64,000 bases of DNA from Ascidiella aspersa (Eukaryota). Shown one piece after another: positions 1-44,231 of this stretch (position 1 is the first letter of the stretch; every line of letters begins with the position of its first letter). Both the position numbers and the translations under genes were made by a program. The notes beneath the pieces were generated by a model. That model ran no database searches and had not been told where the DNA came from. It was given only the letters and a program-made list of their open reading frames with translations. The DNA is taken from positions 38,812,001 through 38,876,000 of the forward strand of contig OZ004608.1 in NCBI GenBank assembly GCA_963924565.1. Direction: 5' to 3'.

Positions 1-739
1 TTTCCCTAACCAAGGAAGAAACAACACTCAAATGTGATTTTAGTAAAATTTTAAACGTTTTGGATATCTTTTTATTTTTTTTATCATAGTGTTGAAAATA
101 AATATATAGATTTTTAAAACATTTAAAATTTTGTATACTTCTATCTGAGCTTCAAATGATATTCCTACTGTACGTCCAATCAACATATTTAATCATTCTG
201 CTTCAAACGTGACTATTTTCCATATTTTTTTAGATTTATATAAACGTTGACTGAAATCCATTATTAGTTGACATTTGTCCCATATCCAATCCATTGGTTA
301 AAATTAAAGTGTATTTTTAGGTACAATTTCTACAAATCTGTAAAGTAGCTTGAAAAGAAAAAAAACATACAATTTGATCAACTCAACATATTTAGCTTTG
401 ACTTTTGTTTTTGAAGTTTATTGTGTTGTTGTAACAACAGTTTTGTATTCCCATAATAGAGAGTGACAAACATTTAGTTAAACTCTGCTTTGTTGTTAAC
501 ATACAATTTGATATACTGACATCAGACGTGATACATTCGTTTTTATATAGTACAATGTTTTTGTATTTACACACATAGTAAAACAAAAATATCAGCACAT
601 AGAAAGTTAAAAACATTTTTTTTTGTAAAAATCAAAATATTAAAGAATTGGTTTACTATATACAAAAGAAACCTAGACAAAGTTTGAGATATTTCAAGTT
701 CAATATATTGTTGAATAATTTCCAACATTTATATTTTAG

Positions 740-861
740 ATTCTTTTTGTTTGGCCGGCACCAGGGTCCAGGTTTATTGGCCCAATTCGTCAGTTCAATG
801 GAACAGCGCCGTGGTGACAGGCCACGATGTAGAGGGACAACTACAGATCATGACTGACATG
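740..861 (+). CDS. KDM3: KDM3 exon 1 in window (phase 1->0), N-terminal Tudor-like region: [40 protein letters not shown]
   Basis: tttag| acceptor, |gtgag donor; resembles the JMJD1C/KDM3B N-terminal 'RVRVY..QWFTG..HD' segment (from recall). Confidence 0.85.
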
Positions 862-3800
862 GTGAGCTGTGGGTAATCACTTGCAAACAAGATTTATACT
901 TAGAAAAAGCTCAACAAAAACAGTAATATTTAGTAGACCATTGTTACTTCGTGCTTGAGAAACAACTATGCTTTTTATAAAAGTATCAGAAGTAGAAACG
1001 TAGGTAATATGGTGTGGGGTTCATGTGATTCATAAAAGTTATTTGCTTTTGCGGATTGAATAATTTGTGTTGTTTCATTCGATTTATATAAAGTTGTTAA
1101 TGATTGTACAAGTTCATCACTATAAATGAAAAATTTTAATTGACTATCTGTTTATAGTTAGTGTTTGTTTTATTTATTACTTTATTTAAAATGTTGAATT
1201 TTAGAGCCATAGCAAGTAAATGTGCTTTTACCAATGTTCACTATTGATTTAATTTTTGAATTTTTTATCCAAATTTTGTTTTGTTGGCATTATGTTTTGT
1301 TTTACCTTAAATTTGATAAAATAAGAAGACAACAAAATTGACCAGTAAATATAAAGTACTTTAAGAATCAAAATATTTACCTACAAAAACAAAACAACAA
1401 AGAGCAAAACATCCTAACAACCAGCTTTTTAACTAAAACAACAAATAAAACCGTTTTTTACTCAAGGTGTTGACTCAAACGTCGGTTAACCCTCGCTTGA
1501 CTCAAGTCAAGTTCCTCGACACAACGATAATATCGGAGATAATTCCCGATGGAGGAGCCACGGTTGTTCGAAGAAGCAGACGCAGCACTCGATACAATAG
1601 CTCCAGTTCTATGGTAAGTACAATAATATCAGATCGGAACCAGTACCTGATGCCCAGTCGTAGAATCTGTATTATACTAGGGTGGTATTGGTATCCATAA
1701 CACCAATAAAATGCTATTCAACGCAACAATTCTACATAAAAGGATTAATTTGTCAAAAATTATGAGGCTAATAACTAAAGGTAACTAAATTTTTTAACAC
1801 TAACACAAATTTTGGCCTTAAATAGCATTAGGAAATGTCTGATAATTTATCAGGTTGTAGCCGATACCCAATGTCAAGTAAAAGCATCTCTAATTGTCTA
1901 ATACTCTGGTGATATCTGCGTCGATTTAGTATGGTTAATGTAGACAGTGAATGTGAATTCATGACTTGTGATAGACTGTTTAAATTTTTTTTAGTTTTGA
2001 ATACAAATGTGAGGATGACCTTTGCACACTTTTAAACCTTTGCTTTTGTCCTATAATTGTGAATGGTATAAATGAAGCAAATCCAAAAAAAACTTTTTTT
2101 TTGGACAAAGATATATTTGAAACATTACCACGAACCTGTTAAACTACAAGTTTCAACTTTTAAACAAGTTATTTTAGATATAAAGCGGTACACTTGGCTT
2201 AACTATTACATTTAAGTACCAACTGCTAATTCCTTGCTGTAGTTACAGAAGGTTAACTTTTGTGAGACAATTTCTATTACTTCGAACACCCCATAACGCA
2301 CAGTATGCAACACTTGTCAAGTTTCGAACCATTTTCTTTTAATTTTAATTTGTTTTCAGGACTCTCCATCAGGAAAGCAGAAAGCCAGACTTGGAAAGCG
2401 ACGATCTTGTGTCGGACGTGTCGGATCCCAAATCACAACAGGTTAGGCTTTTTAAATACCATATTGATACAATTTTTTCAGGTTAAAAAATATATTTTTA
2501 TTACACATTTTTGCATAATTGTTTTATTTAAATCATCAAAACATTCTGTCTTAAGGTTATCACACATGAAAAATTTCAACATTTTTTTTTATTGCTTTTT
2601 TTTAACAAATATTTTTGGTTCCAGGAATGAAGAAATCGAGCAGCGGCCCGTCGTCCCCCGCAAGCAAGCCCTCTACCCCCGGATCGGTGGAACCGGCGGC
2701 CGAAAGCCCCGGCGCCCCAAGTCCCCCGACCCCAGTGGCACCAGCTACAGACACCTCAGGCCAATCTGTGAAAGATAAAACAAAAATTAACGAACAACAA
2801 TCACCAAAGCCCCCCGATGATAGTGGATTGTCTGAACAAGTGTCAATCAAATCGCCCCCAGAAGTACCAAAAAAGAAGCATGAGGTTGAAGATCATGGCA
2901 AAAGTGTGGAAGATAAACTTGCAACGAGTCTTGCGCAACAAACAGCGCCAACAGCACACGAAACACTTGATATTTTCAACCACAGGGGTACAACACAGAG
3001 TCCTGTATGCACGATACCAAAGAATTTATCCCCAGTAAGCGATCAAAATAACAGCTTAACAAACCCTAGGGATAAAACCCCACCATTGCTTAATTTGAAG
3101 GGTGAAAAACAACATGAACCAAGTTTGCAGGATAAAAAACAAGCCCCATCATATACAACGGGTGAAACAGCACCCACAGACCACACAGTTGAGCCATTAG
3201 CTCTTATCAAGGTGAAAAACGAGCAAGTTTTTAAACCCGACTCCTCAATGCTTCCCGACATCAGCGCAGATGAAGAGGACACTAAAAACGCTGCGTCGCT
3301 GTTACTCAGCATGTCCAACAACACTCTACACAGCCGTTTGATCAAGCGCGACGTCGATCACATGACCCAGCCGTCGACCAATCACAAGCCTACCTCAAGC
3401 TCACTGGAGCGTGTCGATTACAACAAAGGTGTAAGCAGAACAAGTCAACCACATCATTCTACCTCACTCCACGCAACCAACATCCGCCACAACAATATTA
3501 GTAAGTCCTAACATGTGTTGTTGTAAAAACTTGTCTACTTAACACCATACTCTGTAGGTTGTAACTAGGGGGGTTGTTCGATAATAGCATAGTATCGGAA
3601 CGGATACTTGATGCCAAGTGGAAGTATCGCTACTCTGCCGATACTAAGGTGATAATACCCTAGTATCAGTGCCAAACCTGAATTAGCCTTTTAGTCATGA
3701 TTTGCAATCCAGTTTTTGCGATCCTAAAATCCAAGTGGCACAGCAGACTTGGGGTGTTTTTAGGTCTCTTGCTGTGCCAACGATTTTGATGATGCAGTTT

Positions 3801-6800
3801 TGTTTGCGTTCGGCAGTTTGTCTATCATAGCATATCATTATGCTTGGCAAACATAAAAATTACGTATTTACGAGTTACAACACAATGTTTACCAAATTGA
3901 ATGGCATTTTTTTTAAAGTAGCAAATTAACAATAAAAAAATGTAAGTTTCCCAGCAGTAAAATACAACCCAACAAACATTATGTCTGAATTCAATTTTAT
4001 CAATTTGAATGAAATATGTTTTCTTTCAAAAACAAAACCTTTAGGAAAATAGTTTTTGATGCAGAATTAGAATTTTTTTGTACTATATGGAGAAAACATT
4101 GTTGCAAAGGTTTTGTTCAACCTTCATTAGTTAAATCAGACCTGCCAACCAAACTTTGTTCATACTTCAATGTTCATATTCATCGGTTTAGCAATATTTT
4201 AGCAAACAATTGATGTTGCGTTGAACTGCTTAGAAGGTGACTATGTTTTTGAAAGGTAAGTTTATTGAATTGTCTTTGCTTACAAATGGCAAATCATAAT
4301 AATGGGTAGGAGTCTGCACAACGTGAAGAATGTTAAACAACCAAAATCTGTGCAACCTTGCTGCAATTTTAAACAGTTACCTCTGAAAAAGCTTGAAGAA
4401 GTTCAAGGTAAGTAATTACAGAGGCAGATTTAAGCAGGTGTACTTAATTGTTATTGTCAGAATCTAAATCACGCTTCACAAACCCCCCAAAAAACATTTT
4501 TCGTAACTTCTGTAAGTTTTGCATTTCTATTAAAACCAGTCAATCGCAGTTGTGCCGAACGCCCTAAAAAAACACAGTCAGTGAAGTTTTAAACCTTTCA
4601 CAAGCGCGCAAAACCAACAGGCCAATAATCCGCTTAACTTGCCAACTCAATTCGCAAACTCCGTCGCATTTTTTCCGCTACTGGCGGTAGGGAGCCGCGT
4701 TTGAATGTCGCGATGGTGTGCGGTGATGCGTGACGCCGCACTGTGATTGATCGTTTTGTCGCCGTTTCCCGCTTTTCTAAGCGGATTGTTGCGTCACAGC
4801 CGATCGGTTTCCGAGTATAGGCCGATGGAAGCAAACATATGCCTTCGGGCAACTTTGTAGAGGTAATTTAAGCGGATAACAGATGCCTCTGTACATCTTG
4901 TTGATTAGATGAAGTTTATTTTTGGCAAAACTTCTTTGGAAGAAATCTTCTCACACTGACAGTTATTTACATCTTGTGGTTTTTCGCGTCAAACTTTGTT
5001 GTTGTCGAAATCCGTTCTACATTGTTTTGGGCTGGTTTGTATTTACCTTGCACATTAATACGATTAACAGTTGTAATTTGTGCAATATATATAGATCGTA
5101 CTAATAAATATATTTTCTCTATCCGTTTGAATAGTTGGCTAGACTGGTTGTTGTGTGAAAATTTATACTCATTTATTATGGCTGATTAAACCTTAAAACT
5201 TTCTGTTACCTGACTTAATAGTATTAGGTAAGTTTCTAAGTAATGTTCAGAGTTCATATTTTTATATCTTGCATAAGATATAAAATCACAGTTATAAATT
5301 TAGCCAAATATTTATTCCTACTTGCAAAATGTAATCGATTGACGATAAAAGGTTCATCCTAGCTTTGTTGGAATTGATTGATTAATCAATGTTACCAATG
5401 TTACCGTTCTTCGATGAATTTGCTCAAGCGCATCACCTCTAAATATCCTCACTTCACTTGCTCGTCTCACTAGGGCAAAGGTCAAGTGATCAGTCCTCTC
5501 GTCACGCTCCAATGAGCTCTCCAACGACCTGCGGTTTAGGTTGAGTGCTTTTGTTGCTTGGAGCTTGCATTATCGGCACCAGATATATTCTCTCAACAGA
5601 ACTCTAGATCTTTGTGTTAGAACGCTGTCGGTAACGGATTGCTTATGGCATCTTAGTTCCATTGTAAAGTTGTCACTAGCCTTTTGTTAAACATTACCAA
5701 ATTTCATTTTTTCGTATTTCGTTACCTCGATTTTTTCATTTTTTCATTCACTAGATTTCAAATTAAAAAAGGCCTAAATAAACATATTGTTCGCCTCCCA
5801 TGTAACACATTGCGTTTATGCGTTTATTTACTACAGAAGATGACAAATAATAATTTTGACAAGTAGCATAATATTAAATGTTGACAATTACTTCTTTTTC
5901 ATTGCGATACACGATAAAGGACGATAAAAAATCTACGATAAATATATAAACTGTTAATATTGATCAAAGGTACAGCGTAATTATTTTAATTTTCAAACGC
6001 TTCAGAAAAAGACACCGAACTACGATGATATAAAATCCATTGTAAACAGAAAAAAATTAACATTTACGTTTAGCAAAAGTATGTTAAACAAAATAGATAA
6101 AATAATTTATAAAAATAATAGCATATAAAGCAAACTGCGACTTTTTACATGTTTTTTCTGGCTGTTTTTTTGAAGAGTAAAAACCAAAAAACGATAGAGA
6201 ATTGTTCCTCCTATTTAAACTCCAACAATAGTTATCATATGTTTTCATGTTTTCAAAAAATCAGTTGCAGTTATTCAAAGCACCCCTTTCAATGTGATGA
6301 CGAAATTAAACTTTTATCCGATTTACAAATGTATAAAAATACATTTAACAAAATTTCATCCATTTTATGCGGTGCTTTAAGCACTTGTAATCCAAAATGC
6401 GCTTGCTTTGCTGAAAAGTTTTTCCACCTCTGGTGTAAAAAATAGGCCTAAATATAAATTAATCGACCGCCAGCGCTCGCTTACAACCCTAGTTAGCCAT
6501 TGTGTAGTCGTACTTGACAAATCGACCCCCCATTGAATCCCAACAGGTCTGGAATGTTGAAATGTGTGGAGAGATGGATTAACCCATCCATAACCCGCAC
6601 CAGCGCACGCGTTGAGCGCCATTAGAGGTTCCGCCTTCAAATATAGTGGGTATTTATTGATCGTTCCAAACATAAACTTATTTCGGGCTCAGTTTGAAGC
6701 ATTATATAAAAGATACAAAAGGAACACGAAGGTAAAAAAGACCAAAAGAACCACGAAGGTTAAAAAAGACCTAAAACATACTATAGTCACGCCAAAACGG

Positions 6801-9800
6801 CATTACCAGTTCTGCTTAAAAACTTATTTCGATTAACCAGAATTCACAAAAACATTGACACATCAAAAAATACTACATTTAAACGAATAAAGGCTTGTTT
6901 TAGGAGCATAATGGCTGGAGGTTGTAGTAAGACGTAGTAAGAATATCAAATCCCATACAGAAGTAGGTATCAACAGATGTTGATAATGAATAAAGATTTA
7001 TTCGAAATGCCACCTACCTCTTAGATATTCGTACTACGGCTTATTTTTAATGCGGTTTTATATATGACCCCCCCAAAAAGAGTCCTGTCTCATTGCTAAA
7101 CAGCCCTGCAAACCAACCATACTATCGCAGTTTGCCAAAGGCGCCACTCGAGTCTAGTCATTGTGACGTTCTGATTACATTGCGGTCGATTTATGGAGCT
7201 GTATGTGAAGGTTAATGGTGTTACAAGTGTGAGGTGAATTAGGAGATAAGTATTGAGCTGTAATTCAAGCATTTGAAAATGTGGAGGAATGTTGGACAAT
7301 CCAAATTCAACTTTCAATCGCCTATAACTCGAGTTTCTCAATAAATTCGCATCTAAACGTGTTAATTTCCTATAATCTTTATGTGTACATAATTTCTGTG
7401 AAAAATATGGTTAAAAATGTTGACGAGAAAAAAAAACGCGCAAACGGGGGCTTTTTTCTGTATGAGCTTACTCCCCGAAATATTTTCTTTATTTTACGAT
7501 CATGATTTTCGAATACAACATATGATAGATCTAAAGTTATCGCAGACTCACCGAATCTCTCGTTCAATGATGGAAGTGAGGTGTACTAATGATACGTGAG
7601 CCGTAATCGTTGGTCAAAACAGCAGCTTCAGAAGGGCTAGATCACAGTGGTTAACACACATTTGTGTGTGCATCTTTCATTTGAACAACACATGATTTAA
7701 TAAATAGTTCCTATCGCTTAATGCCTCGCAAGTCTAACAAACATTTCAGAAGGCGTCGCAAGAAAATGTTTGATAAGCACTGATACAACCCACGCACCAG
7801 CTTCCACGCCCTGCGTGATTGATGTATGTTACTTGTGGTGAACCACCTTTGGTAAGCCTCAACATTAGGGAAGTGATCACAACGTCTTGCGCTGCTACAG
7901 CCGGTGGAAGTATCATTATACCACTTCCCTTCACACCACTGACTTCAACTATTAACCCCAGGCAATGCTGAAAGTTGATTGTTATCATAGAAACGTTTTA
8001 GCGTTGGCTCTATGCACGGGCACTATCTTGCCTTCTAGCCGAAGATCTTTGGCGTGGAGTTCTTTTCTGAAGTATATGTAGTGCAGAAATTTGGCGTAGG
8101 ATTTCGTAAAACCAAAATTTGGGAGAAACTTTGGCGGCCACAAGTTTTGACAGATTACTTAAATATGTAACGTTGCTCTTCTTACCAAAAATAATCGTTT
8201 TAAGCTCTTTTCTTACATCGTTATTTTAGAATCAACATGTTGAAATGTTTAAATATACTCGGTTTCGGAACACTATGTTAGCTCTCACTTTGCCTTCTAT
8301 TTTAAACGTGACTTAAATTGCTGTGTATCTAAAGGTCTTTCGCTGCTTTTTGGGAACCTAGGCACATGTCCTGTTTATCTACCAGGCGATAGGAAAAGCG
8401 AAGATGTGTTTAAAAAAAACATTGAGAATATATTAGTTCTTCATGGACCCCCTAAAACTAGTTCCTGTACCTCAAGGGGTCCACGAACCCCAGTTTAAGA
8501 ACCCCTGCTTTGGATAAAAGACGCATATGTTGTAAAAGTCCAGACTTTTAGACTCGTTCAGGCAATTGTTTACCCTTATAAACAATCCCAGCCGTGGAAG
8601 AACAACTTTATCACATCTCACGAACCATCTCCACTCCTAACACCACAACAAACACAAGCACAAGCCTTTCCACGAAACATATCGCCACAAAGATCACCTT
8701 TTAAAGCCCCAAGGCTCTTCTTACTTCAGGCACAGACTAGCCAGCAAACGTGTATTGTTGACGTCATAATGGCTATAATGACACCTTAAACGGCGCGAGA
8801 TGCCAATCGCAGTCGATATTTCGCACCCGAGAGTAGGTTTGTTGCGACAACAGTGGCAGGTGATTTCCAACCTAGCCATCTCGTGCTAGGTTAACAAGCT
8901 CAACCAGTTATTTTCAACCTGGTTTTATGCACCGCTAGTTCGCGGATTATATGCAGAGTTTTGGAAAGAATGTGAGAAGTGTGATATTTTGAATTGTGTA
9001 GTTTCGGTCTGCTGCATTTAATTGACTTATGTTCTAACATCTGCCTCTATAGCGCTGTATTTCTTTAAATCTTTTTTGGGCTGTAATTTGCACAGATATA
9101 TCTGGGCGAAATGGTTTGGTTCAACCATTTTTTGACGCGGGCATTTTTAGCCCTCATGCGGAGTTTCGATTTTAACGCATTTTTTTGTCCACCTGCTGTA
9201 AATATTTTCCCTGTTTTAATGCAACATTAAATCGACCTGCAAACTAAACCCTGTGTTTTGTTAACCCTCATTTTTTTGTTTTTATAAATTTAAGTAAATT
9301 TCATTATTTTAAAACCAGCTGATGCACAGCGATAGTGAAAAGTCTAAGGTGTTAGGTGGACAGAAAAGTTGGAAAAGCACTGACTTTGGTATTTCAATCA
9401 AGGTGCGGCCGTTGTACTTTGCTCATGGAAGTGTTTGTTGTTTATTGCTCTCATGTGGCTGCCTCGGGCGATAAGCACTTGCACCAAGCACAGGCTTGCC
9501 TTGAGGCAGTTTTAACGTAGAAAGCTGATCTAGAAGTGTTGGTTAAATAAGCACATTTTTATTCAAAAGGTTATTGTTTTTCTGATAAAAAGCACAGTCA
9601 GTTAAATAATAGCCACAAAACCGCTAAATTAGGTCATTTCTATGACACCGAATCCCCAGGAAATAAGAGAAGTTCCAGGCAGTAGTTTATAGGTAACTTA
9701 TTTATTTAACATTTTTATCCGTAAAAATACCGTAAATATAGTTGTGAAAAAACAAAATTACGCACCATTTTATTTTCTTGCTAGAACCGATGATTCTTAT

Positions 9801-12800
9801 CCAGTGTCTGTAATTTTAAATAAATTTATTTTAGATGTTTTAAAACTTTATGGTCCTTGTTTATTTCTCACCCAACATATGAGTAATTGGTATGCGACCC
9901 TAAATATTCCAAGTGTTCATCACATACCCTGTATAAGATTGTTTGCCTTTATACCACAAGCAGCCTCGTCAGCAAGTTAGTCAACAAAAAACGCAGCCGA
10001 AGGTCGCCCATAGAGCCAAGTCAGCATCTACCTTGTATGCCTTGTCTCACTTTGTGTGCCTTGTCTTACTTTGTGTGCCTTGTCTCACTTTGTGTGCCTT
10101 GTCTTACCTTGTGTAGCTTGTGGCTAGCCAAGGTTGTGCACAGACCCACGCAACGTAGCTTTGTAACCGCGCGCCCAAAACACACAAACCGGTGTGCAAA
10201 TACCTAGGGGTGATAATATCGTATGATAGCCGATACTAGATGCCAAGTGGTTGTATCGCTACTCGTCCGATACTAGGGTGGTATCGCTGCCGATCCGATA
10301 CCAAATTAATATAGGAATTTCAGCTATAGTTTACGATTAAATACAGTGATTTTTACCTTAAAATGTCATTGTTTTAACAGACAGTGGGTTTACAACTGGA
10401 GATAAGCCACGTACTTAAGCCAGACTTTTATTAAGTTGGTGGGAACACCGACGGCTTTATTGTAATGTGTCCTGGGATTTGCTTTTTAATCCTAAAGGCG
10501 AGGACAAGTATAAATTTTCTCTGGCAACTGGATGCACTGTTTGCACTTTTTTTCAGCCAACTCAGAAAGATACAGTTTACAGTGATTTGGACACAAGCAT
10601 TTGCAACTTGTCATTTGAAATTTGTTGTTTCAAATGTTAATTAAGGCGTGGTGTTGTCGGTTTTGAATCACTAAACGTTGGAATGTTTGAGTAGCACTGA
10701 CCGGAACATTGTTTTCAAACCCCGGCATTGCGAAAAGGTCGCTACTGTTTGTTCGAATGAGTCATTTTGGGTTAAACTAGAAATTCAAATTGTTTTTTTC
10801 GTCGTATTGACCTTTGTTATTGATTAACGACAATCAGGTGACAACACCTTTTGTCGTTACACCATTTAAAGTCTGACACAATTTATTTGCTCCAATGTGT
10901 TTAACATTAATGCAAAGGTGTACAGCGAAATTTTGCATTAAAATATAGCACAAGCTCGCAAAAAGCCAGGGACAACATTCAAAAAAGTGAAATATTTAGA
11001 GAAATTTAAATTATGATGGCATCGTATGTAAACAGCTGGATAATTAAATAGATAATTTAAGTTTTTGAGTTAAAAACATTGCGATTTTGTCTGAACTTGT
11101 TCTAAATTGAATAAAAATTATATTCTTGTTCAGATTTTGGTAATAATTCTACCTTTTTCTACTTTCTAATTCTAATCTAATTTTTTTTTTACGGAAACTG
11201 AAATGAATATATTTAACCCAAGTCTCGTCGTGTATAATTCCCAAATATCTGGCGAAAATGCGCGAATGTGCTTCTTGTGTCCTTGTGTATAAGTGAAGCC
11301 AACAGCATTCCAGCACGACCCAGGCTTATTTTAGCTCCATCGACCTTCACAGCCACAAGCCTCTGTCAATATTTCCAGCAATCAGCGGCTTTAGCGAAGT
11401 ACTTGGCTTGCTAGAGTTCAAGGGCGTACAACGGCTAATGAAGGCTGCCTTTAACAAGCTCGTTTTACCTGGAAACTTGCGGTCGTTCATTAAAAGTAGA
11501 ATCAAAATCGACCAGCAACTTAGTTTATAGCTTGCAAAACATACTTAGAGACTTATTGCACGAATTTGTTATTTCAAACGAGTTTATGCTCACCGTGTGT
11601 TATGTGAACAGGGCAGAAATATTTAGCTTGATAATGAATCTCAAAACCAAAAGGCCGAGTGATTCGACATCATTAAGACGTTTCGATACGAACTTGTCAT
11701 CAGTTAATACGTCACAACTGCGTATCGAAACGTCTTTATCAAGATGATGTCGCTCTACTCGACCTTTTTGGGTTTGCAATTCATTATCAAGCTACATTAC
11801 ATATCCGTGCATAGTGCACTTCAGAAATATTTAGGTGTGCCATTTACTGATTGAGGTTGCTAACAAATTTATCAAAATACTCAGATGTAAATCTGTCACA
11901 GAATGCAGAGCTGAATACCATGCAACATCATAAAGTCAATAAAAGAGAAGTTACGAAAGTCATGTGTAGAACTTTCTGCTGAGGCCTTGTAAATGCCAGC
12001 GTGCTTAACTGGAAATTTGCGGTCGACCTTGAACCTGTTATGCGCTGTTGGGCAGATTACGGCGGTCTACATGACCTTTAAGGCGCAAATGTTATTCAAG
12101 ACAGGATTTCAATAACTTTGACATTTTTTGGTTTTAAATGTGTGGATTTTTAGTATGCCGGCTTTTTTCTTGAATTGCTTGCAAATTTTCATTACATAGG
12201 CTTCTCAGTTAAACGTGGTCGCCGCGGATTTAATTGTTTTTATTTGGTTTTGGTGTTGTCGCCGTAGTTGTCATGCTTAGATTTGTTGAGATCAGTTCTG
12301 AGCAAGTTTGCCCAAAAATCTATGGTATAATTTTTTCCCAATAATTCTGTCATATTATGTTTATTTTGCCTTTACTTATTGTGTGATAGCGTTTTGTGCT
12401 GTGTAGCTTCTGGTCCACAGAATGCAGACTGGTCAGAAATAAATAAAATTAAAATTTTGGTGACATTGTATAACTATCACTGGTAGGTTTTGAAAAAAAT
12501 TGCATTTTTTGATTTATGCTACTATTGCTACTATGTATTTGCTACCTCGCCACGAAAAAAGGTTGAGAAACACTTGTGTAAATTCACAAGCAACGTGTTT
12601 ATTGATATGCACTTATACAACCAGCAAAGCTAACAACCTTTGTACGATAAAGCGAATTCAGTTTCACAATCGCCAAACTCATGTTGTGGCCTTACCAACC
12701 CACACACACAGCAGGTTCCAGTGTAGATAGAAGTCCAGTAGCACCAGCTCTCAGCCTTGATTGATCACACACGTTCCCCTCCATTAATAATTCACCAGTC

Positions 12801-30800: not shown

Positions 30801-33800
30801 TGAGCCCCGGAGCACTGTGACGTCACTACATCCGGGAAGGAAGGCGCAGTCACGCTTGGCTGCACACGTGCCGCTACGAGCGAGCGATGAGTCACGCTTA
30901 CGTCAGCAGAATGGCGCTGCTGTTATTGGGTTCATGTGAAGCTATAAATAAGCTGGCTGGCTTCCCTATCGATCGCGCTTCCTACTAATGCTACCGCCAT
31001 ACGCAGAAAATAAGCATTGATTTTTGCAGATGCGAGAAAGCTGAATGCGTGACTGCAATGCTTTGCCACGTAACCACAAAATCGCACCAGGGTTTTGTGG
31101 AATCCATTCTTTAAGTTGAAACTAAACGGATTCGTCCATATAGTATCATTCTGTTGGAATTGTGGTGACCTTGTGTTCTTTTTTGTCAAGAAATTAATAG
31201 CAGCTACTTCGCTCTAGACACTGTTGTTTCCCCGTCGACTTTTGGAATTTTTGCTTTTTCTCATTTTACAAATCAGCTTTAGCTGAAAGTTGCTTTTCCG
31301 CTTTTGTTTGAGCAAAATTGCACAAAAAAATGTTGGAAAATTTGACTTTGGGAATTTCGCACCGCGATGTTTTTTTAACGTATTTGTTTTGAACTGTTGT
31401 TAGTTTTAATAATATCCGACTCCTTCGTCGAAGTACAACAGCTCGTAACGTAATTAATCCCTTTTTAAATAGCTAATGTGTTTTTGTAGTATACTATGCT
31501 TGCTAGCGACAGCATATTGATTCAAGTAAAGTTATGTTTACCATTTTGCCAGAGGCGCTAAAATATCACCAAAATAAGTGCGTCTGTATTATGAGCATCC
31601 GACTAAGAACGTCGCTAAAACACTGGGCTGTGCTGCGGTCGCATTAGATCGAAGTTAGATTGAGTTGTCGTGTCTCGCTCATGTGCTTCAAGTAATGGAC
31701 CGTCTGCCGATGCGACGAGTCACTAGCTGCAGATAATGTTCGGATCAATTGTGAGCTGGTATAAACAAAGTAGGTCGTGAGAGCAGCGCTCTGGCCCCGA
31801 GCCAATATATTGTGCGACGATCTTGTCTAGCGCGCTTGTGCTCATTTAGGCGAAAGTAACTTTCCGTTCGTCAGATGAACAGCACTGTAGAACAAAATGG
31901 TATTTTTGTTTAAGTTTTTAAGTTTAGTTTATATTAAAAATCTTACTACTCGGTAAGTGAGACATTTCTCGGTTGTACATGAATGCCGAGGTCACATGTA
32001 AACCAGCTTGGCAGTGTATATATAATCATATATGTTACGTTAAATTAAAGGCGTTGTTCTCGAACATTCGACACTATTGATTTTGCAATCCTGAAGCAGC
32101 AGCAGTCGTTTTATATTTATCATTGCATTAATATGTGTTGAAGTGAGTAGAGATTCGAAACGTTCACAAAATGCTCCTTATTCTATAAATGCTTTGATGT
32201 TCCTCCTACTTCTTACTAAAACCTTCAACCATTTTTCTCAGATTTTTGTTTCAGTTTGTAATTGCCTTAGTAGCGTTAAGCCCAATATTCGAACAACAAA
32301 GTTTTGTGAATCACGAAGCATCGACACACTTGCTTTGTGCTATGAGTAATCTTCAAGCTTATTACACACGGTTCAACACACGCAATATGATGCATCAAAT
32401 CATGCGTGTGTTGGCGTAGGAAGGAAATAGTTGGATGCGTGTCATCCGGGGACGACCTACAAACTAGCAACAATAGTATTATTTTGATGACGGAAAGTAT
32501 AAAAATACCTCATACATTTACTCTAAATGCAAATTTAATGCCTCGTTTGTTTTGTTGTTACGAAATTTTCACAATTACAGCTCACACAACTCTACTTTAG
32601 TTACAAAAGTAGGCTGTATTTTGAAAGAGATCGTTTACGAAATTTGGAAGCTCTGTGCACTCAGGCGTTTAAATAGTTACACAAATGATTTAAAGTTCTG
32701 CAATTGTTATATGGGCCGAAAATTTATTTTCGGGACATATCTTGTTTTAGCATGTTTTTGGATGATCAAACAGTCCTGTTGATATCATTGCAGAATAAAT
32801 TCAAAATCCACCAGTTTTAAAATGCGTATTTACTTGCTCAAGGCGTTTGTCGATACATGATATTTCAAGGTGTTTGTTCTGTTTGAAGCGGCTAATTGCG
32901 AAGGTTTCAACGCACGTCATGCTTCACTGCTCCTGGCGTTGCAACGGAAACCTGTGGTCACGCCCCACTGACCTCAGGGGTTACTCTGGGTCGTTGCGAT
33001 TCTTGTGCACTGAAGCGAGACGACCTTGGGTGGTGAAAAGTGGGTTTGTGCCGTTGAAACACGCGTGTTGGCAGAAGGTTCAACAGGACGCTTTAAGAAA
33101 AGTCTCAACAATTTTTAATCATTTTTTAAACAACATTGTTGTCGAGAAAAATTGTAACTTATGGTTGGAAATTCAAAGTTAAAAAAATTACGTTTTTTCT
33201 CAAAACTGTCAACATAATGTTATAATTTTTGGAGCATACCGGTTGGAGGTTGTTTAAGACGTAGTAAGAATTTTAAACCCTATACAAAAGTAAATAGCAA
33301 TTTGAACGTTTCGAATAAATCTTTAAAAAGATTTTACCTACCTCGATATGGGCATTGATATTCTTACAACATGTTATAATTGTATTTCGTACAAAAGTTA
33401 TGTTTTAAGCAACTTTAATTTCGCTTTTCACGCGTTAAGCTCACAGTTGCGCTTTGTCTCTCATCTTATTAATGAGAAAAAAACTAAAACCTGGTTGGCC
33501 TCTTAATTGGCTTGATAGAATTTGCGAAAGGTTAAAGTCAGGCGTGGCGTTTCTATTTGCGATGTCTGGCGCAAATTACCGAAACCATGTCGTCACTCGA
33601 TTAGTTTTGCGGGTTATTTTAGCGCTCGGCTGCTGATAAATAATGCATTGAGGCAAGGCGAATCAGCAATGGGGTCAGCCATTAGTCAATTAAACATGCT
33701 GTGTGAAAGCTAGTACTTTCGAGAGCGATGTAGCGCTACGCAAATTTGCAGTTTAGTTTATATACCAATGTATCTTATGTTTTATATTTAAGTGTCTAGA

Positions 33801-36800
33801 CACTGTTTAAAGGACTTGCACAACAATTTTTAAGTTGTTTCAAAAAGTTGTATAAAAAATGATAGTTGTGAAACGGCAGAAGTCTAGTTTCTACTTGGTT
33901 GATTGATTCTAACCAGTTTTAATTTGCCATATTGAAAAAAGTAAACCTGTGAGTTTTAAAATTTTCACAGCTCTGTAAGAATACTATTTAATTTAACTTG
34001 AAAAAGTACGTGATGCTAAGTAGGATCACACACTTTGCAAAAGGTGTAGCTACGCCTATTTGCCAAATACTGTACTTAGCGCATTTACTGGTTATAATTG
34101 CAACATGTTGTTGTAGGGTGCAGTAGACCAAAGGGCAGCATTGCCCAGTATGATAGTACGCTAACATCACGCAGGAAGTAGCTATGTACCTACTGTTGTC
34201 ATTAGTGTAGCACCCAGCGCTTGCCCAATATCGTAATTGTCCGCTTTTAGTTCCACGGCAACAACACGCACTAAAACAACAATGAGCTGATCGATTGTTG
34301 TTCGTTTGAAGCCGCTGCAACAAAGAAATGTCAGCTGTCGCGTTGTCACCGTCGTTTCGTATCGACTTTCATCTTCCATGTAATTAAAGACTTTTGGAAA
34401 ACAAGCTTTATGCTAAAAAAAACATTTTTTTGTTTTCAAAGCACTGTTTCTCAACTTTCATTTCAAGTCGACCGAAATACTAGGCGTAAGTCCAGCTTCG
34501 AAGCTTCAGCGCCCAATTTCCTTCACTGAACTTTGTTGTTAGCCAACAAAACATAAGAACATAAGAAATAAGCATGAATAAGTCTGAATTCCATAAATAT
34601 GAACTTTGTCTTTGTATTAAATCTTAAAAAACCTTGCCATGTGAATTACTGCAGTCGGCGACCCAACCGAATCAAACTGCCATACATTTTGGATGTTGGC
34701 CCATGGGCCGAGAAACGCTTAAAGAGCGCTATTTAACAAGAATTTTGGCGAAAATGTTTAAATGACAAGTATTGACCAAAGCAGGTTTCTCTGCGGGCTT
34801 TCAAGATTTATTTTCCCGCCAACGGCCGCTGCGTCATTAGCACCCCTAGGCAAACTGCTCTCTGCAGTTAATCAATAGAACGCTTCTTTATTGGAGGTCT
34901 GTGACGTATACAGCGGGCTATTATGGCGTCACACAGGGTGTAATAAGGTCGTGTTGGTGCAAGAATTGAGACAAACCAGACTGATTAGCACTCACTTAAG
35001 TAGATGTTTTCTATCTGTGAAATATCACAAATGTTAGGTTGAATTCGGCTTGATTTTAGAAAATTTGTTGAAATTGTATTCCACATATCTAGCAACCACT
35101 GCTGAAATATTTATTAGATTTTACGCATGACCGTTTATATTTAAATTTTACCAAATAATATTTTTAGCAATTCAAATTGTTGAAAAAGTCCGGTAGAGGG
35201 TTGTAGTCAGGTTGTTTGGCTGATACAAATCTAAGTTTTGCACCACAAGAAACTTTCTCCGGTCGCATAAACAGTGGTAATAAAACCTAAAGTCTTAAAT
35301 GGTTCACTTAAAGAGAAGTAAAACATCGCTGTTAAAATCCGCCGGCAAAGTGTGACTTTTTTCCCGGCGAGCTACTTCCAGCGACGTCGGCCATCTTGTT
35401 ATTTCCTGCCCAGCAACCTGAAGCAAACGAAGGGGATTAATTTGATCGATCGAAGCAGCAGCCGTCGGCAGAAACCTCCTTCAAGCCCAGTTTTATTGCG
35501 CGATCGATAGAGAGGGAAAAAGGTGCCCCCCCCAGCGCTGTACTCTACTGTGCGATTGACTGCACTAATTATGCTCTCGCCAGATGAGATTGGAAAGGCA
35601 ACGCCTTGCTTGGCTGGTGGAAATTTAACCCAGGCATGTTTAGAAATCGCATAAACGGCTTTTTGTGTCGGCCGGGAGCTTTCTTGTAAGAAGCTACCAG
35701 ATTTCGTGATTATTTTCTGCCCAGTATTGCTATTGAAGTAGTCAGTGTTTCCCATGGTTGCTTTTTCTTACGTTCTGTTCTTAGGCTAAAAAGAACTAAA
35801 ACGACTCTTATCTTTAACTGGCAGTGTTGGGACAGGCTTAGGTATAAATACAAACAAAAAATATAGTATTTTGTCACCAGTATTTTGTAAGGTTGTAAAT
35901 ATGCGATGGTAAACTGAAGTTTTGATTTTCTTAAACGCAGGTCAAAACTGCTCAGCTTAAAAGTGTCGATAAGTTGATGTTCTTGGAAATTGTTCACCCC
36001 AATAAGTTGTTTATTCGCTTCACTGAGCAGTTTTAAACCTTGCAAGCCTGCTGTTTTGTCAGCAATTGCTTCTGTCCTTTTTCACTTTCACTCGTCACAA
36101 TACGGACTTTCCCAGTCTGTGTGACATAACAGACGATCAATTGTTGCGTCGAGCTGCATGCAAAGCAGTGCTTTATTGGTGAAAGGCTGCAGACAGGTTT
36201 GGAGCAAAAAGTTCAAGTCACTCGACCAAACTGCTTGGCCCTTATCTTACCTTTGTGTATTCACGCTGGTTTGACTTCTGTCAGTTGCTGCTTCTGTAGA
36301 TTTATTTTGGTGATTGTTGAGTAGAATTGGCAATTGTCAAAATGGATTGGGCACACAGTTTGAAAACTGAGCACCTTCCGGGCAAAGCTAGACAAAAAAA
36401 TAATTTAAAATAGTATGTTGATTTTTTCATATTTTACTAGATAGCAAAACTTTATTTTCCAGAAGTTTGTCTTTAAAGTTATATTTTTAACCCCGTTTTA
36501 TATTACATTCAAAAGTGAATCAAACATCGTTCTACTCTAAAGTTTTGTCTATCTTTCAACGTGGAAAGCTTGTTTGATTGTCTTGTCACAATACGCGTGT
36601 CGCGACGCCTGCGCGTACCCGTAATGCGCAGACATGAATAATGCATGACAACCCGGCTATAACTGGCGATAAAATGCAGCTGACCTTTGGAATTTTGCCT
36701 GGCGAGCAACCAAGCTCGAGCTGCGCCTGATGATTAATGGGGATCGTGGCCTAGATTATTCTCAGCAGGCCAGAAGGCCGACCAAGCCACTGTTGTATGC

Positions 36801-39800
36801 AGCAATGCACAACAAGCTGGAAGTCACATCTGTTGCATCAGCGGGAAGCTGCTTGTGAAGTTGCTGGGAACATGTTTGTGTGTGGAATCTCCCGCAGAAT
36901 ATTGACTGGTATTTGAGTTAGGAAACTGATGATGCCTGCCTGTTTTGCACGGCAAACTATATATTTTTACGTATTCGCTCAGGCTGGTAGACTTAACATT
37001 TGCTGATTAGTAAAACCTAGTTTGGGCAGATGTTCATTAAAACATCGGCGGTAATTTAACGTAAATAATGCGTATTAAAAAATGGAATAATGCGAATTAA
37101 AAGCTAGCTATGTTAGTTTTGTGGTTTGCAAACTTGGAGAAAAAGTCGATATTTTTTGGCTCAATTCGTGAAGCACGATTTAAGAAAACGTGACAATTCT
37201 ATCTCAAAGTTTCAAAGGTAATGTTAGCTTGGGGTGGTAAGCCCACAACAGCGTAACGTCGCACCTCTATCTACAAGTGTTTCCTTGAACTGCTTTTGTG
37301 AGGTTTAGCTTCATCCATCGCTAAGGAATCTAAGTAGACCGCTTTTTTTGTTCCATTTAAGTCTGTAAAAATACCATTGCTGTAGTTTAAAGATGTATTT
37401 CAAAAGACCGCTTCGGTTTCTCAAAGCGCCTAAAAACACATTGTAAGAGCTTTTCACAAATTCACGGTCGTATGCGGTAAAATTAACGCAAGTGTAATGC
37501 GGCTGCCGTAATATATATTTATTTTTGCCACATTTATTTGACTTGCAATTTAAAATCTCAGCTATCGTTAGGAGCGAAGTTTTTCAACTCACATTAGACT
37601 TTCTAAATTCAAATAAATTAAATAAAATGGTTTTAGGTTGTCCGCACCGACAGTGAGCAGTCAATAGGTGGGAGGTGGCCGACAAAGTTTGAGAAAGTCT
37701 GTTATAGCAGGACTGGATTCGAGTGTGAGATGTAACCTGACCATATGTGCGGTGCGACAAGGGCCCAGGGCGACAGGAATTTGCTCGACGACTGAAATAA
37801 GACACCAGAGCGGTCACGGATGGGCGGGTTTAGTGAGAGCAGACCGAACTGTGCGCTACAAGACAGACTTGTGGGTTTGAAGTCGCCTTAAAAACAGCAG
37901 TTCGCCAATCTTGGCTGTACGATGTTTGGCTGTTTGGTTTTCGCTGGTTTGGCAGGCTGTTGGAGAATAATGGTTGGAAGTTGTAGTTAGACGTAGAATG
38001 AATATCAAAGCCTATAAAGAAGTTTGAAGTTTTTTATTACAGTTTCGAATAACTCGTTATTCATTTTCAACATCAAATAATGTCACTGTCTTGTCCTTAT
38101 ATCTTCTTAGTTCACTTTGACCTCGCAAAAAGTTGAGTTAAGGTAATCGGCTTGCCGAAACTTCGATGTTATATTTAGCCTTAGTATTTGTGTGGCCGCG
38201 AAAAAAGGTTGAGAAACACCGACTTAGGGAGTGAGTAACACCACGGACTTCGAACGGAATGAGCTGTCCGCATCAAACTGTTAATGTTTAACTTTGATAT
38301 ACGTCATTACTGCGGTTAGTTTCAGTAAATGTGTAAGACTTGTTGACGCCTCATGTATTATTAGTTGGCTAGAGGCCAAACCGCTACGCTCTAGTTCTTA
38401 ATTAGAAGCATTCAGTTGTTTTCTATATCCAGGCAAGGCAGGTGAGATAAACGTTGTAGTAACCCTCGACAACTATCTTCGTTGAAAGCCGTATTTGTTG
38501 AACTCTAAATCTGGAAACCAGGTGGCACTGTTGAACGATAAATTGTGTTGTAATATTGACAACCTTTCGTACAACTGTGCCAGTCAAGTTAATCCAGCGC
38601 CATTTTTATGTTTTTAAAACTTGCAAAATCGACGATTTGGCCTCTTCAACGTGATAACGACTGTTCAATTGTGGACTTAACCTTGTAATATTTCGCCGAC
38701 ATGCGCCAAATACACGCTTGCTGTCACCTGGTTTGTTAAACATTCATCTTAAGCTGCGCTCAGCATTTTGTAAATAGAAGCAGACTAGTGGTTCTCTGGT
38801 GTTGAGGAGGCCTTGTTTAACCTTTGCACTACGACCTGTCGGTCTTTCCACAGCTCTTTGTTGGTGAAATCATGTTGAACACAGTTACTGGCTGGGAAGA
38901 AATCTTTTTGTACAAGTCGTAGATTACTATAAATAAAAATGAAAGGGATTCATGAACTAATCTTCAAATTAGAAGATTTACCCCAAGAAAAATAATTTTA
39001 CAGAAAATCTGCTGTTAAAGTTGCCTATCAACAGCAAGGTTTCGAATATTGAATTTCCATTTGTTGAAATCTACAACAACGAGAAAAATGTTCTATTACT
39101 GTTTTCGACTAACCAGACCTAGCCTTAACTTACATTTATAAATTCATACTGGAAATCAGTTGGCACTGTTGACAAATTGTATTTTAATGTGAACAAGCTT
39201 TCGCACAACCTCGTGCTTAGTCGTGTTAAAACATTACAATACAAAATCCCACCTGATTACCAGAAATCAATAAAGATAGACGCAAACTGAATGTGATTGC
39301 GCGTCATTGACAACCCACCAACCAAACCTCGTATAATCAACATCTCAAAAGTCCCCTGTGCCCCCCACCCCCCACAATCGCCCGCCGCGCGCTCTCGGGT
39401 TATGAGCGGCGATTGTTGGCCTCTAATCTCATTATGACGTCATGTCCCGGCGCGCGCGATGATTGATTGTCGGTGGAGCGCTGCAGGCGGTCGGACGCCA
39501 GAAGCGAACGCGGCTTCACCTACGATCAGCGATCCAAGCTTTGGACGCTGTTTGCTGCTGGATGTCGGTGTTTTATCGCTAATGTGTTTTGGGCGTTGTT
39601 CGAGTTTCAACTTTCAAGGATGTCGGAACAAAGCAAACCTGGTTGATTACATGGGATTGGTGAAAGTGCGTAGTTATGGAAATATAATACAATGTGACTG
39701 ATTAGGAATGCGTGTTGTTACTCAAGTTAAGGCAATAGGCGCTGTAGTAAAACAAGACAAAACACTGTTAAGTTTGTGTTTTTCGCCATAAACGTTGTTG

Positions 39801-42800
39801 CAGTGTCTAGCTTTTAAAGGTTTTACGATTTTGTTAAAAAGTTTTGGACGAAAAGATGGGAAACTTGTGTATTTAGTGAGAAACAAGAGTTTAAAAAGTG
39901 TACAGTTAATGCTGAGTTGTGTAAGCGTTCCGTCGCACTGTACAGGAATTACAAGCAGTCTTGAAGTAGTGATTCACAAGTGTTTACGTGAGTTGCAGTT
40001 GAAGTCACAGTAGCAGCATCAGCAGTGTCACGCGTTTAGCACCAGGCACGTTATTCTCATCTCTAGTGCTTCCTGTAAAGCTGTGACCCAATGTCGTCTG
40101 CGCCAGCTACAGCGCCGTATATTACTGGCGTGGGCGTGATGCTAGCTTTGTGCGTTATCAGTTTTAATAGATGGAGGGTTTAGCTGTAGCAGACCAGCGT
40201 CGTGTGTACACAGTCGACCACTTCTAAGCTGTGCCCTTAGTTTAGGGTTGCCAAGTCAAGTTGGTGTCATTGCGAGGCTAGTTTATAATTAGTGGGAAGT
40301 TAATTTGAGCTTGTTTTGAGTTGACTGGAAATTAATTGGACAGTTATTTAAATTATAGTCGTTTGACCTGATCAATTTTGAAGTTGCGCTTTTGTGAAAC
40401 TTGTGCTTTTTAATTTAATAAGTTAACTGTTTAACCACGTTTCGATTGTCGGCCATTTCTAGTCAAAACCTTCGCTTTAACGCAAAGAATTTTCCTTACT
40501 CAGGAAATACTACGTATTTTTGTCCAAATTGGAATATAGCCTATACTTCAGACAATACCATGATAAAGAATCATATACGCAGTTAACAATACTTGTATGT
40601 TGCCGTGATTTTGCGAAATCGTTCATTAGTCGTAAGGAATTTTTTTACATGATTAGCGAACTCGGCCAAACCACAAGTTGTAGGGTTGCCAGCTGTGGCT
40701 TGCCTGCCTAGTCACCGTCCCGGTTAATATTTGACCACTACACGCCCCACATTCTTCGCGCTTGTGCCAACAGAACGACGTGATGGTCCTTTTATGGCGC
40801 CACTCCTCGCCAAGGACAAAGAAGCATAGGGGGAAGTGCTTTTACTGTGGAGTCGCTTCGAAAGTCTGCCAGCTAAAAGCTAGCCTGGTTTATATACACG
40901 CGTGGAAAATCCTTTGGTATCAGGTGGCACTCCTTAAAGACAAATTGTATTGAAATCTTCCAAGCTTTTGTACAACCGTGCTTTATCAGGTCAAAGTAGA
41001 AGAAATGACCTGATAAAGCAGGTTGTGCGAAAGCGGTTACTTAGATGGAAAAGCCGTTACTTAGATCGATATGATAATTAGGATTGTTTAGTGCAAGCAA
41101 AGCTAGGCTAGTCAAATGTAGTTTAATGAAATTACTTTAAAACATGTGGCTCTACAGCTGGAGACATGTTGTAGGTAAAAGGCTTTACCAAGAAGCAGTC
41201 AGAATTAGACATTTTGCTTATTTTTCCGTAAAAATTGCTGAATACTGTGATGTGCTAAATCTAACCGTACTCAAGGTTTGATTTTGTTTTAATGCCGCGT
41301 TTTCATTTGTAGAACAATCGATGTTCCACCAACAATCAGCATATTTGCCATTAACGGTCGCTCTAGTTCGCAAATGTTTAATGCGCGTAATTAATTGCCT
41401 GTCAGTTCGACTTGACGCCATTAGTCACTCGGTGTGAAACTTCTAGTTGGCACGTTTGCTCTAGAAACAGCAAACCCTCCCGCCATTTTCAACCTTCCAA
41501 AACTTGCCCAGCAAGCCAGACCGCTCGCGCCCATTGTCCTTGCCACGTGGTCGCATACCGTGAGCGCACAATGGCTATTATTACACCACAGGACGACAAT
41601 ATCGCATCGCATTGTCTCCTGCTATTCTCATGTCATTACACTCTCATTGTTGGGTCACAGTTGTTGATTGTGGCGCGTCACAATGAGCATTGTTTAGTCT
41701 GCTGATTATGTTACGGCTTGTTTGGGTTTGATTTTATTTGATTTAACCTTTACTCTTCAGATTTATTCCGTAATTAAGAGCATTATTTTTAGTTTTGATG
41801 AGCATTGTTTATCTGCTTAGTGCATTTGTATGAATATAGTTGTTATAATTGCCGACTTTAATTGAAAGGTCAATTTTCCTTGCGCGTGTTTTCCAGACCT
41901 GTTCAAAGCTGCTTAATCCAACAGTATTTATTTGCTTGTATTTTTAGCCCAAGGCTGTATAGGCGCCTCAGTAGAACCTAACATTACAGCCACTCCTATT
42001 AAGTAGCGGGATATGCGCCAAATATGCGCTTTCCATCCTAAATTGGAATCGTGAATAGCTTATTACTGGAAAGTATTTACCGCTCTTTATTACGTCATTT
42101 AGTTAACGTTCGTTTGTTCTTAAAACATCTTAAAATGGCACAATCTATTGATAATAAGCACGAGCGTTGGTAACTGGCATTAATTCAACCAACGTTGTGT
42201 ATTGATTGTCACCCTTATGAGGTCATAAAGCTAAACAATCGCTACCTTCTGTTAAGGATCAATGTATTGTGATGTAACAAAGCATCATCGATTGTTTCTG
42301 TGAACATCAATTCAGCACTTTAAGCTGAATTTCTGTGGCAAAGTCCATTAGTGTCAGCAGATGATAATTATTGACCCACTTGAATCAATTAAACCACCCA
42401 ATGATTCAGTCTCTTCAAATGTTGTTACGACCTCGCAGTTTGAATTACAATAATAGCTATTTATGCTACAGCTAAATTTAAACAAGGAAGTCATTAAATT
42501 AGATTTTGTAAATTTATTATTGTTTGCTTATACCATCACATGTTTTTGTTTTTGACATAAAAGATCAAACTGAACCTTACTTGTAATTTTCTAAAGGTCA
42601 AATATAAAGCAAAGGATTAAATTTTGTTTATGAAGTCGTTGTAAATTGATTTGCTTGATGAAAACAGAGCATAGCAACCCGGAAAATAAAGTTTTATGGA
42701 ATGTAGCAGCAAATGTTTGCTAGTAAACTATTATTGCTGCAATTGTTCAACTGTTTTCATTGCAATTGAATCTAATTTTATTCTTGTGCTCTGTTTGTAA

Positions 42801-44187
42801 TTCACAGTCCTCTGAAACTCCTGCCCATATTGAATTTCCAACATCCCATTGGTCTTTCTGTACAAAGGAAGACAATTCCTTTGTTGCTGTCATAAAAACC
42901 CTTTTCACCCTCTCAATTCGGATCGTAACCGATTTACGACATCCAATATGTTAGTGACGCATTTCTCCACTTCACAAAGCCACTAACAATGGGCTCTGTG
43001 ACACGTAAATACCTTTCCTGGAGGGCTTGTCTCCTGGTAAGAGAGTCGCAAATGGAAGGTATCACATTGCAAAAACATAAGTGTACCAAGCTGTTATTTT
43101 AATCCTTAGATTTTGCTGTTACTATTTCACCCATGATATACATATTTCTATTTTCTTTCAGGTTTTGTTAATAGAAACAAGAGTTTAAATTTGTAAAAGT
43201 TTGTAAAAAAGTTCTTCTCTTATTTCGTTGTGCCAAGTTTCATTGCCTTTGTACAAAATGAAGCGGTAAGAAGTGGCATTATTGTCTCAATTTTTCTGTT
43301 AAACTTGTCTTTGCTTAACAGCATACCAATGGACATTCTCTATTATAGCGTTTGCTCTGCAAGTATGTTCTTTAAGCAGAATTACTTTGATTATCTATAC
43401 AATACAGGCAAAACAGTAAAAACATAGAATATAAATGAACTTTCTCTCATTTAAACAAATTCCGTTTTTCTTTGCAAAAAATTATTTATTTTAATAACTG
43501 AATTCAAAAATGATTTTAGAAGTTTTGCAAACCCTTGTAGTTGACCCAAACAAACAGCGATTTTTTATTTGTTTGCTCCAAATGATTTATGTTAAATGTA
43601 GTATAAAAATAATTTCATAAATTTACAAAAGTTATTTTACCCAACAGCATCATAACAATACAGACTTTATTTGTTGTACTTTCCAGAAACCGAAAGTGTT
43701 GAGTCTCTGTGTTCAGAGACGACTGCCGCCAACCCGATCGCCACGATGCACCAAAGCAGCCCGAATGCCAGAACCTTGTCGGCAATGGTCACGCAGCAGG
43801 TAACGCACACTTGTTCGCCTTAATCTTAACTTTAACAGGCATTAAAAAATAAATGAAAATGTATTCAAAATGTTACCTATACTTTTGTTATGTGCTTTCT
43901 TATACCTCTCCAATGTCCAACAATTGGTATTTAATTTATTACTTGTACCTTTAGCGTCAACTGGTTCATGTTTTGTTATGTTTTTTTATTAAGTCTGTTA
44001 CTGTGCTGGTAAGTGCAGGTTGTTTGTTCACAAGACCTGATACAATAAATTGCCATTGTTTTTTTTTTTGTGTAATAAATATACTTTATAAATAAGCATT
44101 AAAATTACCTTTCTAAATTAAGTAATTTGCTTACTGGTTATTTCCAATATTTTACAACTGATGATTTTGCAGGCCTTACAGCAACAA

Positions 44188-44231
<44 letters not shown>

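Follow-up and report, generated by a model that had tools for sequence, protein, structure and literature searches.

A candidate second promoter in a 40-kb CpG-undepleted intron of the KDM3 gene of the ascidian Ascidiella aspersa

A second isoform of human JMJD1C lacks the N-terminus and is made from another start. It is 219 amino acids (aa) shorter than the full-length form (PMC3623819). At the loci of two further histone demethylases, an intronic promoter with an alternative first exon gives rise to N-truncated isoforms, KDM2A-SF and KDM2B-SF, which lose the JmjC domain and keep the reader domains (PMC7000146). Here we analyse a stretch of 64,000 nt from the ascidian Ascidiella aspersa (genome size 308 Mb; assembly GCA_963924565.1, contig OZ004608.1, positions 38,812,001 to 38,876,000), called the window below; it carries 26 exons of a KDM3/JMJD1C gene that is split by a 40,186-nt intron. 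The balance of the evidence leads us to favour, with modest confidence, an internal promoter at the 3′ end of this intron, from which an isoform of ∼2,030 residues without DUF7030, PWWP and Tudor domains would be made. Like JMJD1C isoform 2, this would be a shorter second isoform of one gene of the same family; unlike it, the ascidian form would lose ∼600 residues, the entire Tudor domain and the linker among them. Ascidian KDM3 is also a single gene, while human JMJD1C is one of several paralogues. Compared with KDM2A-SF and KDM2B-SF, the ascidian form would show the opposite choice of domains, keeping JmjC and losing the predicted readers. Intronic promoters that truncate chromatin enzymes are already known; the KDM3 locus would be a new example, with the catalytic half kept and the N-terminal module dropped.

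The distribution of CpG at the locus has its closest counterpart in the mosaic methylation of Ciona, where depleted gene bodies lie beside undepleted DNA, repeats follow the domain of their host and promoters set the 5′ edges (PMC3827831, PMC4776710). A promoter placed in the intron of a methylated Ciona gene sets a new 5′ methylation edge (PMC3827831), an observation that we count in favour of the internal promoter. One class of Ciona genes with long introns has methylated promoters and unmethylated bodies (PMC4776710). Genes in Ciona are either methylated or unmethylated over almost their whole length (PMC3827831), whereas in the four long Ascidiella genes described below CpG depletion fades after 3–12 kb. 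Methylation concentrated in the 5′ part of genes is described for the honeybee (Zemach 2010 as cited in PMC8857917); the honeybee is an insect, while Ascidiella is a chordate in which the pattern is read from CpG depletion, mainly in introns. In Nematostella, gene-body methylation suppresses intragenic starts (PMC13345969).

All introns of the gene in the window are of the GT-AG type, and the 26 exons join into a single open frame of 2,459 aa ending at position 62,676 (positions are those of the window). The best protein matches were Ciona and Clavelina KDM3, which identifies the gene, by similarity, as the ascidian KDM3/JMJD1C orthologue. The gene starts ∼9–10 kb upstream of the window, and five or more further coding exons lie there; exons are numbered here within the window, and exons 1–4 are not the first exons of the gene. 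The parts of the gene that matter for the argument are as follows.

740–861, 1467–1613, 2360–2441 and 2625–3500, plus strand: KDM3/JMJD1C coding exons before the giant intron, Tudor_KDM3B in the first, low-complexity linker after
3501–43686, plus strand: giant phase-1 GT-AG intron of 40,186 nt; nine RNA reads join exon 4 to 43687
4236–4862, plus strand: candidate alternative first exons, with two top-scoring donor-like sites (after 4255 and 4407) beside a CpG cluster at 4.5–4.85 kb
43162–43265, plus strand: unannotated exon, non-coding for KDM3; donor at 43266 joined to 43687 by three RNA reads
43687–43799, plus strand: exon 5, with an internal Met at 43746 in a strong initiation context
50438–62676, plus strand: zinc-finger and JmjC exons (zinc-finger exon 52318–52470; JmjC with HxD...H; stop codon 62674–62676)

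Three RNA reads with three different starts joined 43265 to 43687; these are 3 of the 12 listed entries into exon 5. The reads extend at most 32 nt upstream of the donor, and RNA coverage is absent over 41,100–43,160. By our estimate, the short reach of the reads together with this empty interval is more easily reconciled with a 5′ end close by than with a cassette exon of a long mRNA. The count of 21 reads leaving exon 5 was not significantly different from the 12 entering it (p = 0.16). The upstream boundary of the extra exon, 43162, is the top acceptor-like site of the whole intron (score 14.1 versus 9.6 for exon 5) and lies 104 nt before the donor. Either a trans-spliced leader or an upstream exon may be joined at this acceptor; in ascidians, trans-splicing prefers the first acceptor that follows a start (PMC11155486), and putative outrons in Ciona average 438 bp (PMC4691747). 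In the extra exon the main frame runs into a stop, and the short upstream ATG that it carries is out of frame; the first in-frame Met is therefore the one at 43746. That Met would start a protein of 2,031 aa, and it is aligned in Clavelina and Ciona, thus in three ascidians, at the start of a conserved block.

A similar isoform is annotated in a relative. The gene LOC143459469 of Clavelina lepadiformis has an isoform X5 (XP_076812764.1) of 2,033 aa with JmjC only, whose own first exon supplies a nine-residue start; the junction corresponds to residue 524 of the 2,547-aa form and is equivalent to that of the extra exon. X5 thus begins with an in-frame coding exon; the Ascidiella intron showed no similar peptide, and its 98 donor sites offered nothing convincing as a first coding exon of this kind. 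Clavelina isoform X4 has another private start, joined at residue 264, and a second Clavelina annotation splits the gene into products of 543 and 1,990 aa at the same place as the X5 junction. Among 10 invertebrate species examined that have both long and short forms, an isoform without DUF7030, PWWP and Tudor occurs in seven, and the other three keep all or part of Tudor. The alternative start peptide is near-identical in two sea urchins, and the amphioxus short form starts at residue 216. A search for further tunicate orthologues found none.

Non-coding CpG observed/expected (o/e) values divide the gene into four zones. A uniform o/e, which the initial annotation had named as the outcome contrary to its proposal, was not seen.

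1–4545, no strand: end of CpG-depleted block 1 (o/e 0.43), which runs from ∼9–10 kb upstream of the window
4545–42210, no strand: CpG-undepleted zone (o/e 1.00, GC 39%) with 19 CpG clusters and ∼7% short repeats, their CpGs intact
41350–41720, no strand: last CpG cluster before depletion restarts, a candidate internal promoter or enhancer, with seven Sox-like hexamers
42211–55060, no strand: CpG-depleted block 2 (non-coding o/e 0.53), the exons within it not depleted
55061–62433, no strand: undepleted 3′ introns (non-coding o/e 0.93), up to the last exon

Change points were located at 4,545 and 42,210, with a likelihood ratio (LR) of 37 at 42,210 and again of 37 at 55,060, the end of block 2. 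The o/e is 0.98 in the giant intron versus 0.52 in introns 1–3 and 0.57 in introns 5–9, in agreement with the contrast to nearby introns first noted by eye. Depletion does not extend evenly over the rest of the gene, since introns 16–25 are at 0.87 (repeats masked). The description of the intron as CpG-rich had to be given up: its core is at 0.99 compared with a median of 1.01 for 513 background windows of 2 kb, 55% of them as high or higher, and the intron is therefore undepleted rather than rich and does not qualify as a CpG island or enriched domain. CpG-cluster density is 5.0 per 10 kb versus 3.4–5.9 in four background blocks, and 76 of 398 overlapping 38-kb background windows likewise have no dip below 0.8. 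The introns upstream of the window, up to 4.2 kb in length, are depleted throughout (o/e 0.22–0.56); since this includes the 4.2-kb intron (0.33), depletion is more than a short-intron effect. A CpG cluster ∼10.8 kb upstream of the window, ahead of block 1, is likely the main promoter. Synonymous CpG use did not separate the regions of the gene. The interval 41530–41695 holds seven Sox-like hexamers in ∼160 bp, and nowhere else in the intron are they clustered so densely. In the sampled background, one region of ∼70 kb (G000:C4:15042000-15112000) has a uniform GC-rich composition and is probably a tandem array.

In four long housekeeping genes used as controls, depletion was confined to the 5′ end, with a reach of 3–12 kb. 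The depleted part covers the first 2.9 of 44 kb in mTOR (o/e 0.43, then 1.08; G000:C9:17979000-18023000), the first 4.2 of 106 kb in UBR4 (0.54, then 1.09; G000:C1:36149900-36256000), the first 3.7 of 84 kb in TRRAP (0.58, then 0.98; G000:C3:36163000-36247000) and the first 11.7 of 22 kb in PRPF8 (0.54, then 0.97; G000:C6:20433000-20455000). The starts of PRPF8 and TRRAP were placed from Pfam positions. The TET locus and that of ZMIZ, a gene with a 19-kb intron, are undepleted almost throughout (ZMIZ mostly at 1.0–1.5) and are uninformative on 5′ limits. UBR4 stands head to head with a sorting-nexin-like gene; the region upstream of both is undepleted, and depletion is seen at each of the two gene starts. 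By default, then, gene interiors in this genome are undepleted, and no depletion is expected in DNA 15–50 kb past a promoter. Given the pattern in all four controls, what calls for explanation in KDM3 is that depletion starts again at 42.2 kb.

The arrangement that we favour would account for both blocks. If germline methylation in this species reaches no further than the first kilobases after a promoter, block 1 (∼14.5 kb) would follow the main promoter, with the giant intron beyond its reach, and block 2 (∼13 kb) would follow an internal promoter at ∼41.4–43.2 kb. The exon 43162–43265 would probably be the first spliced exon, cis- or leader-trans-spliced into exon 5, with translation probably from the conserved Met at 43746; the intron would then serve as the upstream regulatory region of the short isoform. 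The argument for this rests on the three splice reads, the top acceptor at 43162, the sharp restart of depletion at 42,210 and its end at 55,060; on the 5′-limited depletion of the four controls, Clavelina X5 and the Met shared by three ascidians; and on the annotation, in 7 of 10 invertebrate species, of isoforms that have none of the three N-terminal domains. The data establish directly the intron with its extra splice, the division into four CpG zones and the control-gene pattern. From these we infer methylation itself, the start site, the short protein and any regulatory role of the intron.

Several observations weigh against the internal promoter. The splice is represented by three reads from one RNA run, of which ∼6% was read; no reads fall over the proposed promoter or over 43162–43232, and the RNA reads show no cluster of begin sites. 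Since the extra exon itself sits within depleted DNA, CpG and reads do not jointly fix the position of the start. Each of the two KDM3 blocks exceeds the longest one in the controls (11.7 kb). Block 2 exists only in non-coding DNA, its exons being undepleted, and an unmasked hidden Markov model (HMM) does not call it; the eight most AT-rich of 94 intron tiles pool to an o/e of 0.73, so that composition accounts for part of the drop. Methylation state was read from sequence alone. As to the controls, six long housekeeping genes were sought and HUWE1 and BIRC6 were not found. In the four that were, the 5′ end was placed by eye where the depleted block begins, and what we took to be the first exons of mTOR and UBR4 was identified by likeness to human sequence. 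All the short RefSeq isoforms come from automated annotation, in 13 clusters picked among the protein matches as likely to show short forms, and 11 shark KDM3B members that were examined had no short form.

The giant intron itself is real. The initial annotation had set its 40,186 nt apart from 24 small introns in one gene, and the exon structure bears this out: the other introns in the window measure 183–1,171 nt, and nine RNA reads carry the last 30 bases of exon 4 directly to 43687 (agreement 1.0). These junction reads and the single open frame also join exons 1–4 and exons 5–26 in one gene. Over the interval covered by the read data, 23.9–43.9 kb, two DNA runs gave even depth outside repeats; intronic RNA depth was low (0–1.1) and on the strand of the gene, with antisense depth ∼0 outside repeats. 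Two separate genes or a misassembly are ruled out by the junction reads and the even DNA depth over that interval. Reads of a second organism yielded only short, near-identical pieces at low depth and no cross-species conservation.

As the initial annotation stated, long transposons do not fill the intron: short repeats make up 7.2% of it (11% in the small introns), and in a comparison with 1.06 Mb of sampled genome the longest repeat match was ∼200 bp. None of the 43 intron open reading frames (ORFs) of at least 90 aa matched Pfam, and Rfam and tRNA scans of the intron gave no match. We thus rejected a nested gene or a transposon-expanded intron, as no coding ORFs, RNA families or long repeats were found. 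At the 5′ CpG boundary, the donor-like sites after 4255 and 4407, the best two of the intron, stand 150 bp apart, each behind an ATG in frame with exon 5. Read-through of exon 4 meets a stop at 3511 and a polyadenylation hexamer at 3931, so that an N-terminal-only transcript is possible. CpG-undepleted gaps between or within domains also occur in UBR4 (13 kb between domain exons near the 3′ end, G000:C1:36160589-36173799) and in ZMIZ (19 kb within the N-terminal domain, G000:C8:22067835-22086717); long introns in compact genes are therefore not unique to KDM3.

Repeats within the intron have kept their CpGs. In five repeat families, CpG sites read CG:TG/CA as 31:1 in the intron (15 copies) versus 11:9 elsewhere in the gene (9 copies; p = 0.0004), with equal non-CpG divergence in the two sets; seeds and sites were taken from background sequence and the seed copy was excluded. 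The comparison of the intron with high-CpG background gave no difference (p = 0.13). The intron thus appears to have escaped CpG decay of the methylation type, as proposed initially, which would agree with a germline history free of methylation. Genes for DNMT1 and TET are present in the genome, as are two DNMT3-like genes (on C5 and C1). The DNMT1 gene (G000:C2:20078892-20081825) is intronless over at least 977 codons.

The protein encoded in the window has the parts expected of KDM3. A C-terminal JmjC domain is present (PF02373 match near 61 kb) with HxD...H iron-ligand motifs (residues 2248 and 2375 in the window frame), and a Cys-rich zinc finger lies upstream of it (motif at residue 1850). 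Tudor_KDM3B was matched in the exon at 740 (E = 5e-9), and DUF7030 weakly, below the cut-off (E = 2e-4), in the first of the upstream coding exons. PWWP_KDM3B had no match in the exon-by-exon profile search here and a weak one in Clavelina; the N-terminal set of DUF7030, PWWP_KDM3B and Tudor_KDM3B was counted as present in assigning the gene to the KDM3 family, despite the undetected PWWP. The proposed division of the protein by the intron stands insofar as DUF7030 and Tudor precede it and zinc finger and JmjC follow; the idea that exons 1–4 open the gene does not. Demethylation of mono- and dimethylated lysine 9 of histone H3 (H3K9me1/2) and histone binding by the N-terminal domains are predicted activities, the label ‘reader’ coming from Pfam names, and a literature search turned up, among its listed results, no study on histone binding by KDM3 N-terminal domains. 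Two poly-glutamine tracts are encoded at 44178–44261 (exon 6) and 49063–49222 (exon 10); the first is longer than that of Clavelina.

The initial annotation explained the intron as an unmethylated regulatory domain inside a methylated gene body. In its strongest form, a single methylated body would be interrupted by an enhancer-rich domain that is actively protected, for example by factor binding or TET. Such demethylated enhancers inside methylated gene bodies are described in amphioxus (PMC6292497), and TET is encoded in Ascidiella. The intact repeat CpGs would fit, as would the edges of the zone: depletion ends by the first CpG cluster (4.5 kb) and resumes after the last (41.7 kb), ∼1 kb from an exon on each side. 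One hexamer family, found 50 times on both strands in 4400–42200, exceeds all 44 background windows of 38 kb (maximum 35). However, o/e and CpG-cluster density in the intron equal background, and CRE, E-box and AP-1 motifs there are at background level with no enrichment. Moreover, depletion would need to extend 65 kb beyond the main promoter, while the controls are undepleted beyond 3–12 kb, and the 3′ introns of KDM3 are themselves undepleted (0.93). A specially protected domain is thus not borne out, and we consider it unlikely.

Two other explanations dispense with the internal promoter. The extra exon could be a poison cassette between exons 4 and 5, whose stop leads to nonsense-mediated decay or an N-terminal-only protein: the strong acceptor at 43162 requires an upstream partner, exon 4 joined to the extra exon reads into a stop, and a shorter 28-nt version from 43238 likewise shifts the frame. 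Against this, the first 70 nt and the acceptor are uncovered, all three reads stopping within 32 nt of the donor; the acceptor at 43238 scores just 1.6; and both block 2 and the Clavelina isoform would be left unexplained, which makes the cassette quite improbable in our judgement. An ordinary long intron with splicing noise, in the form of recursive or cryptic splicing, and a block 2 made mostly of AT-rich short introns would suit the few reads, the donor score of 5.6, the low o/e of AT-rich tiles and the failure of the HMM to find block 2. Yet the share of entries into exon 5 (3 of 12) is high for noise, the best acceptor of 40 kb stands 104 nt upstream of the very donor in use, and short introns in the 3′ parts of KDM3 and of the control genes are at 0.9–1.1. 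Noise would also leave the conserved Met and the Clavelina isoform aside, and we give it a low probability.

A broader proposal goes beyond the internal promoter, and we put it forward as speculation that we regard as doubtful: Ascidiella may have shifted from whole-gene methylation of the Ciona type to an insect-like pattern limited to the first 3–14 kb after germline-active promoters. Depleted blocks would then map hidden internal promoters by sequence alone, and KDM3 would be a switch between H3K9 demethylases with and without readers that recurs across invertebrates. A literature search, with subscription journals and supplements outside its scope, found no paper on ascidian KDM3 isoforms or on 5′-limited ascidian methylation; methylome supplements could bear on the latter. 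Genome-wide 5′-limited depletion is the more surprising lead compared with the KDM3 locus. The single-copy ascidian KDM3 offers a clean place to test the role of the uncharacterised N-terminal module. If methylation is indeed confined to gene starts in this chordate, the Ciona picture, as a reference for invertebrate chordates, would not be general.

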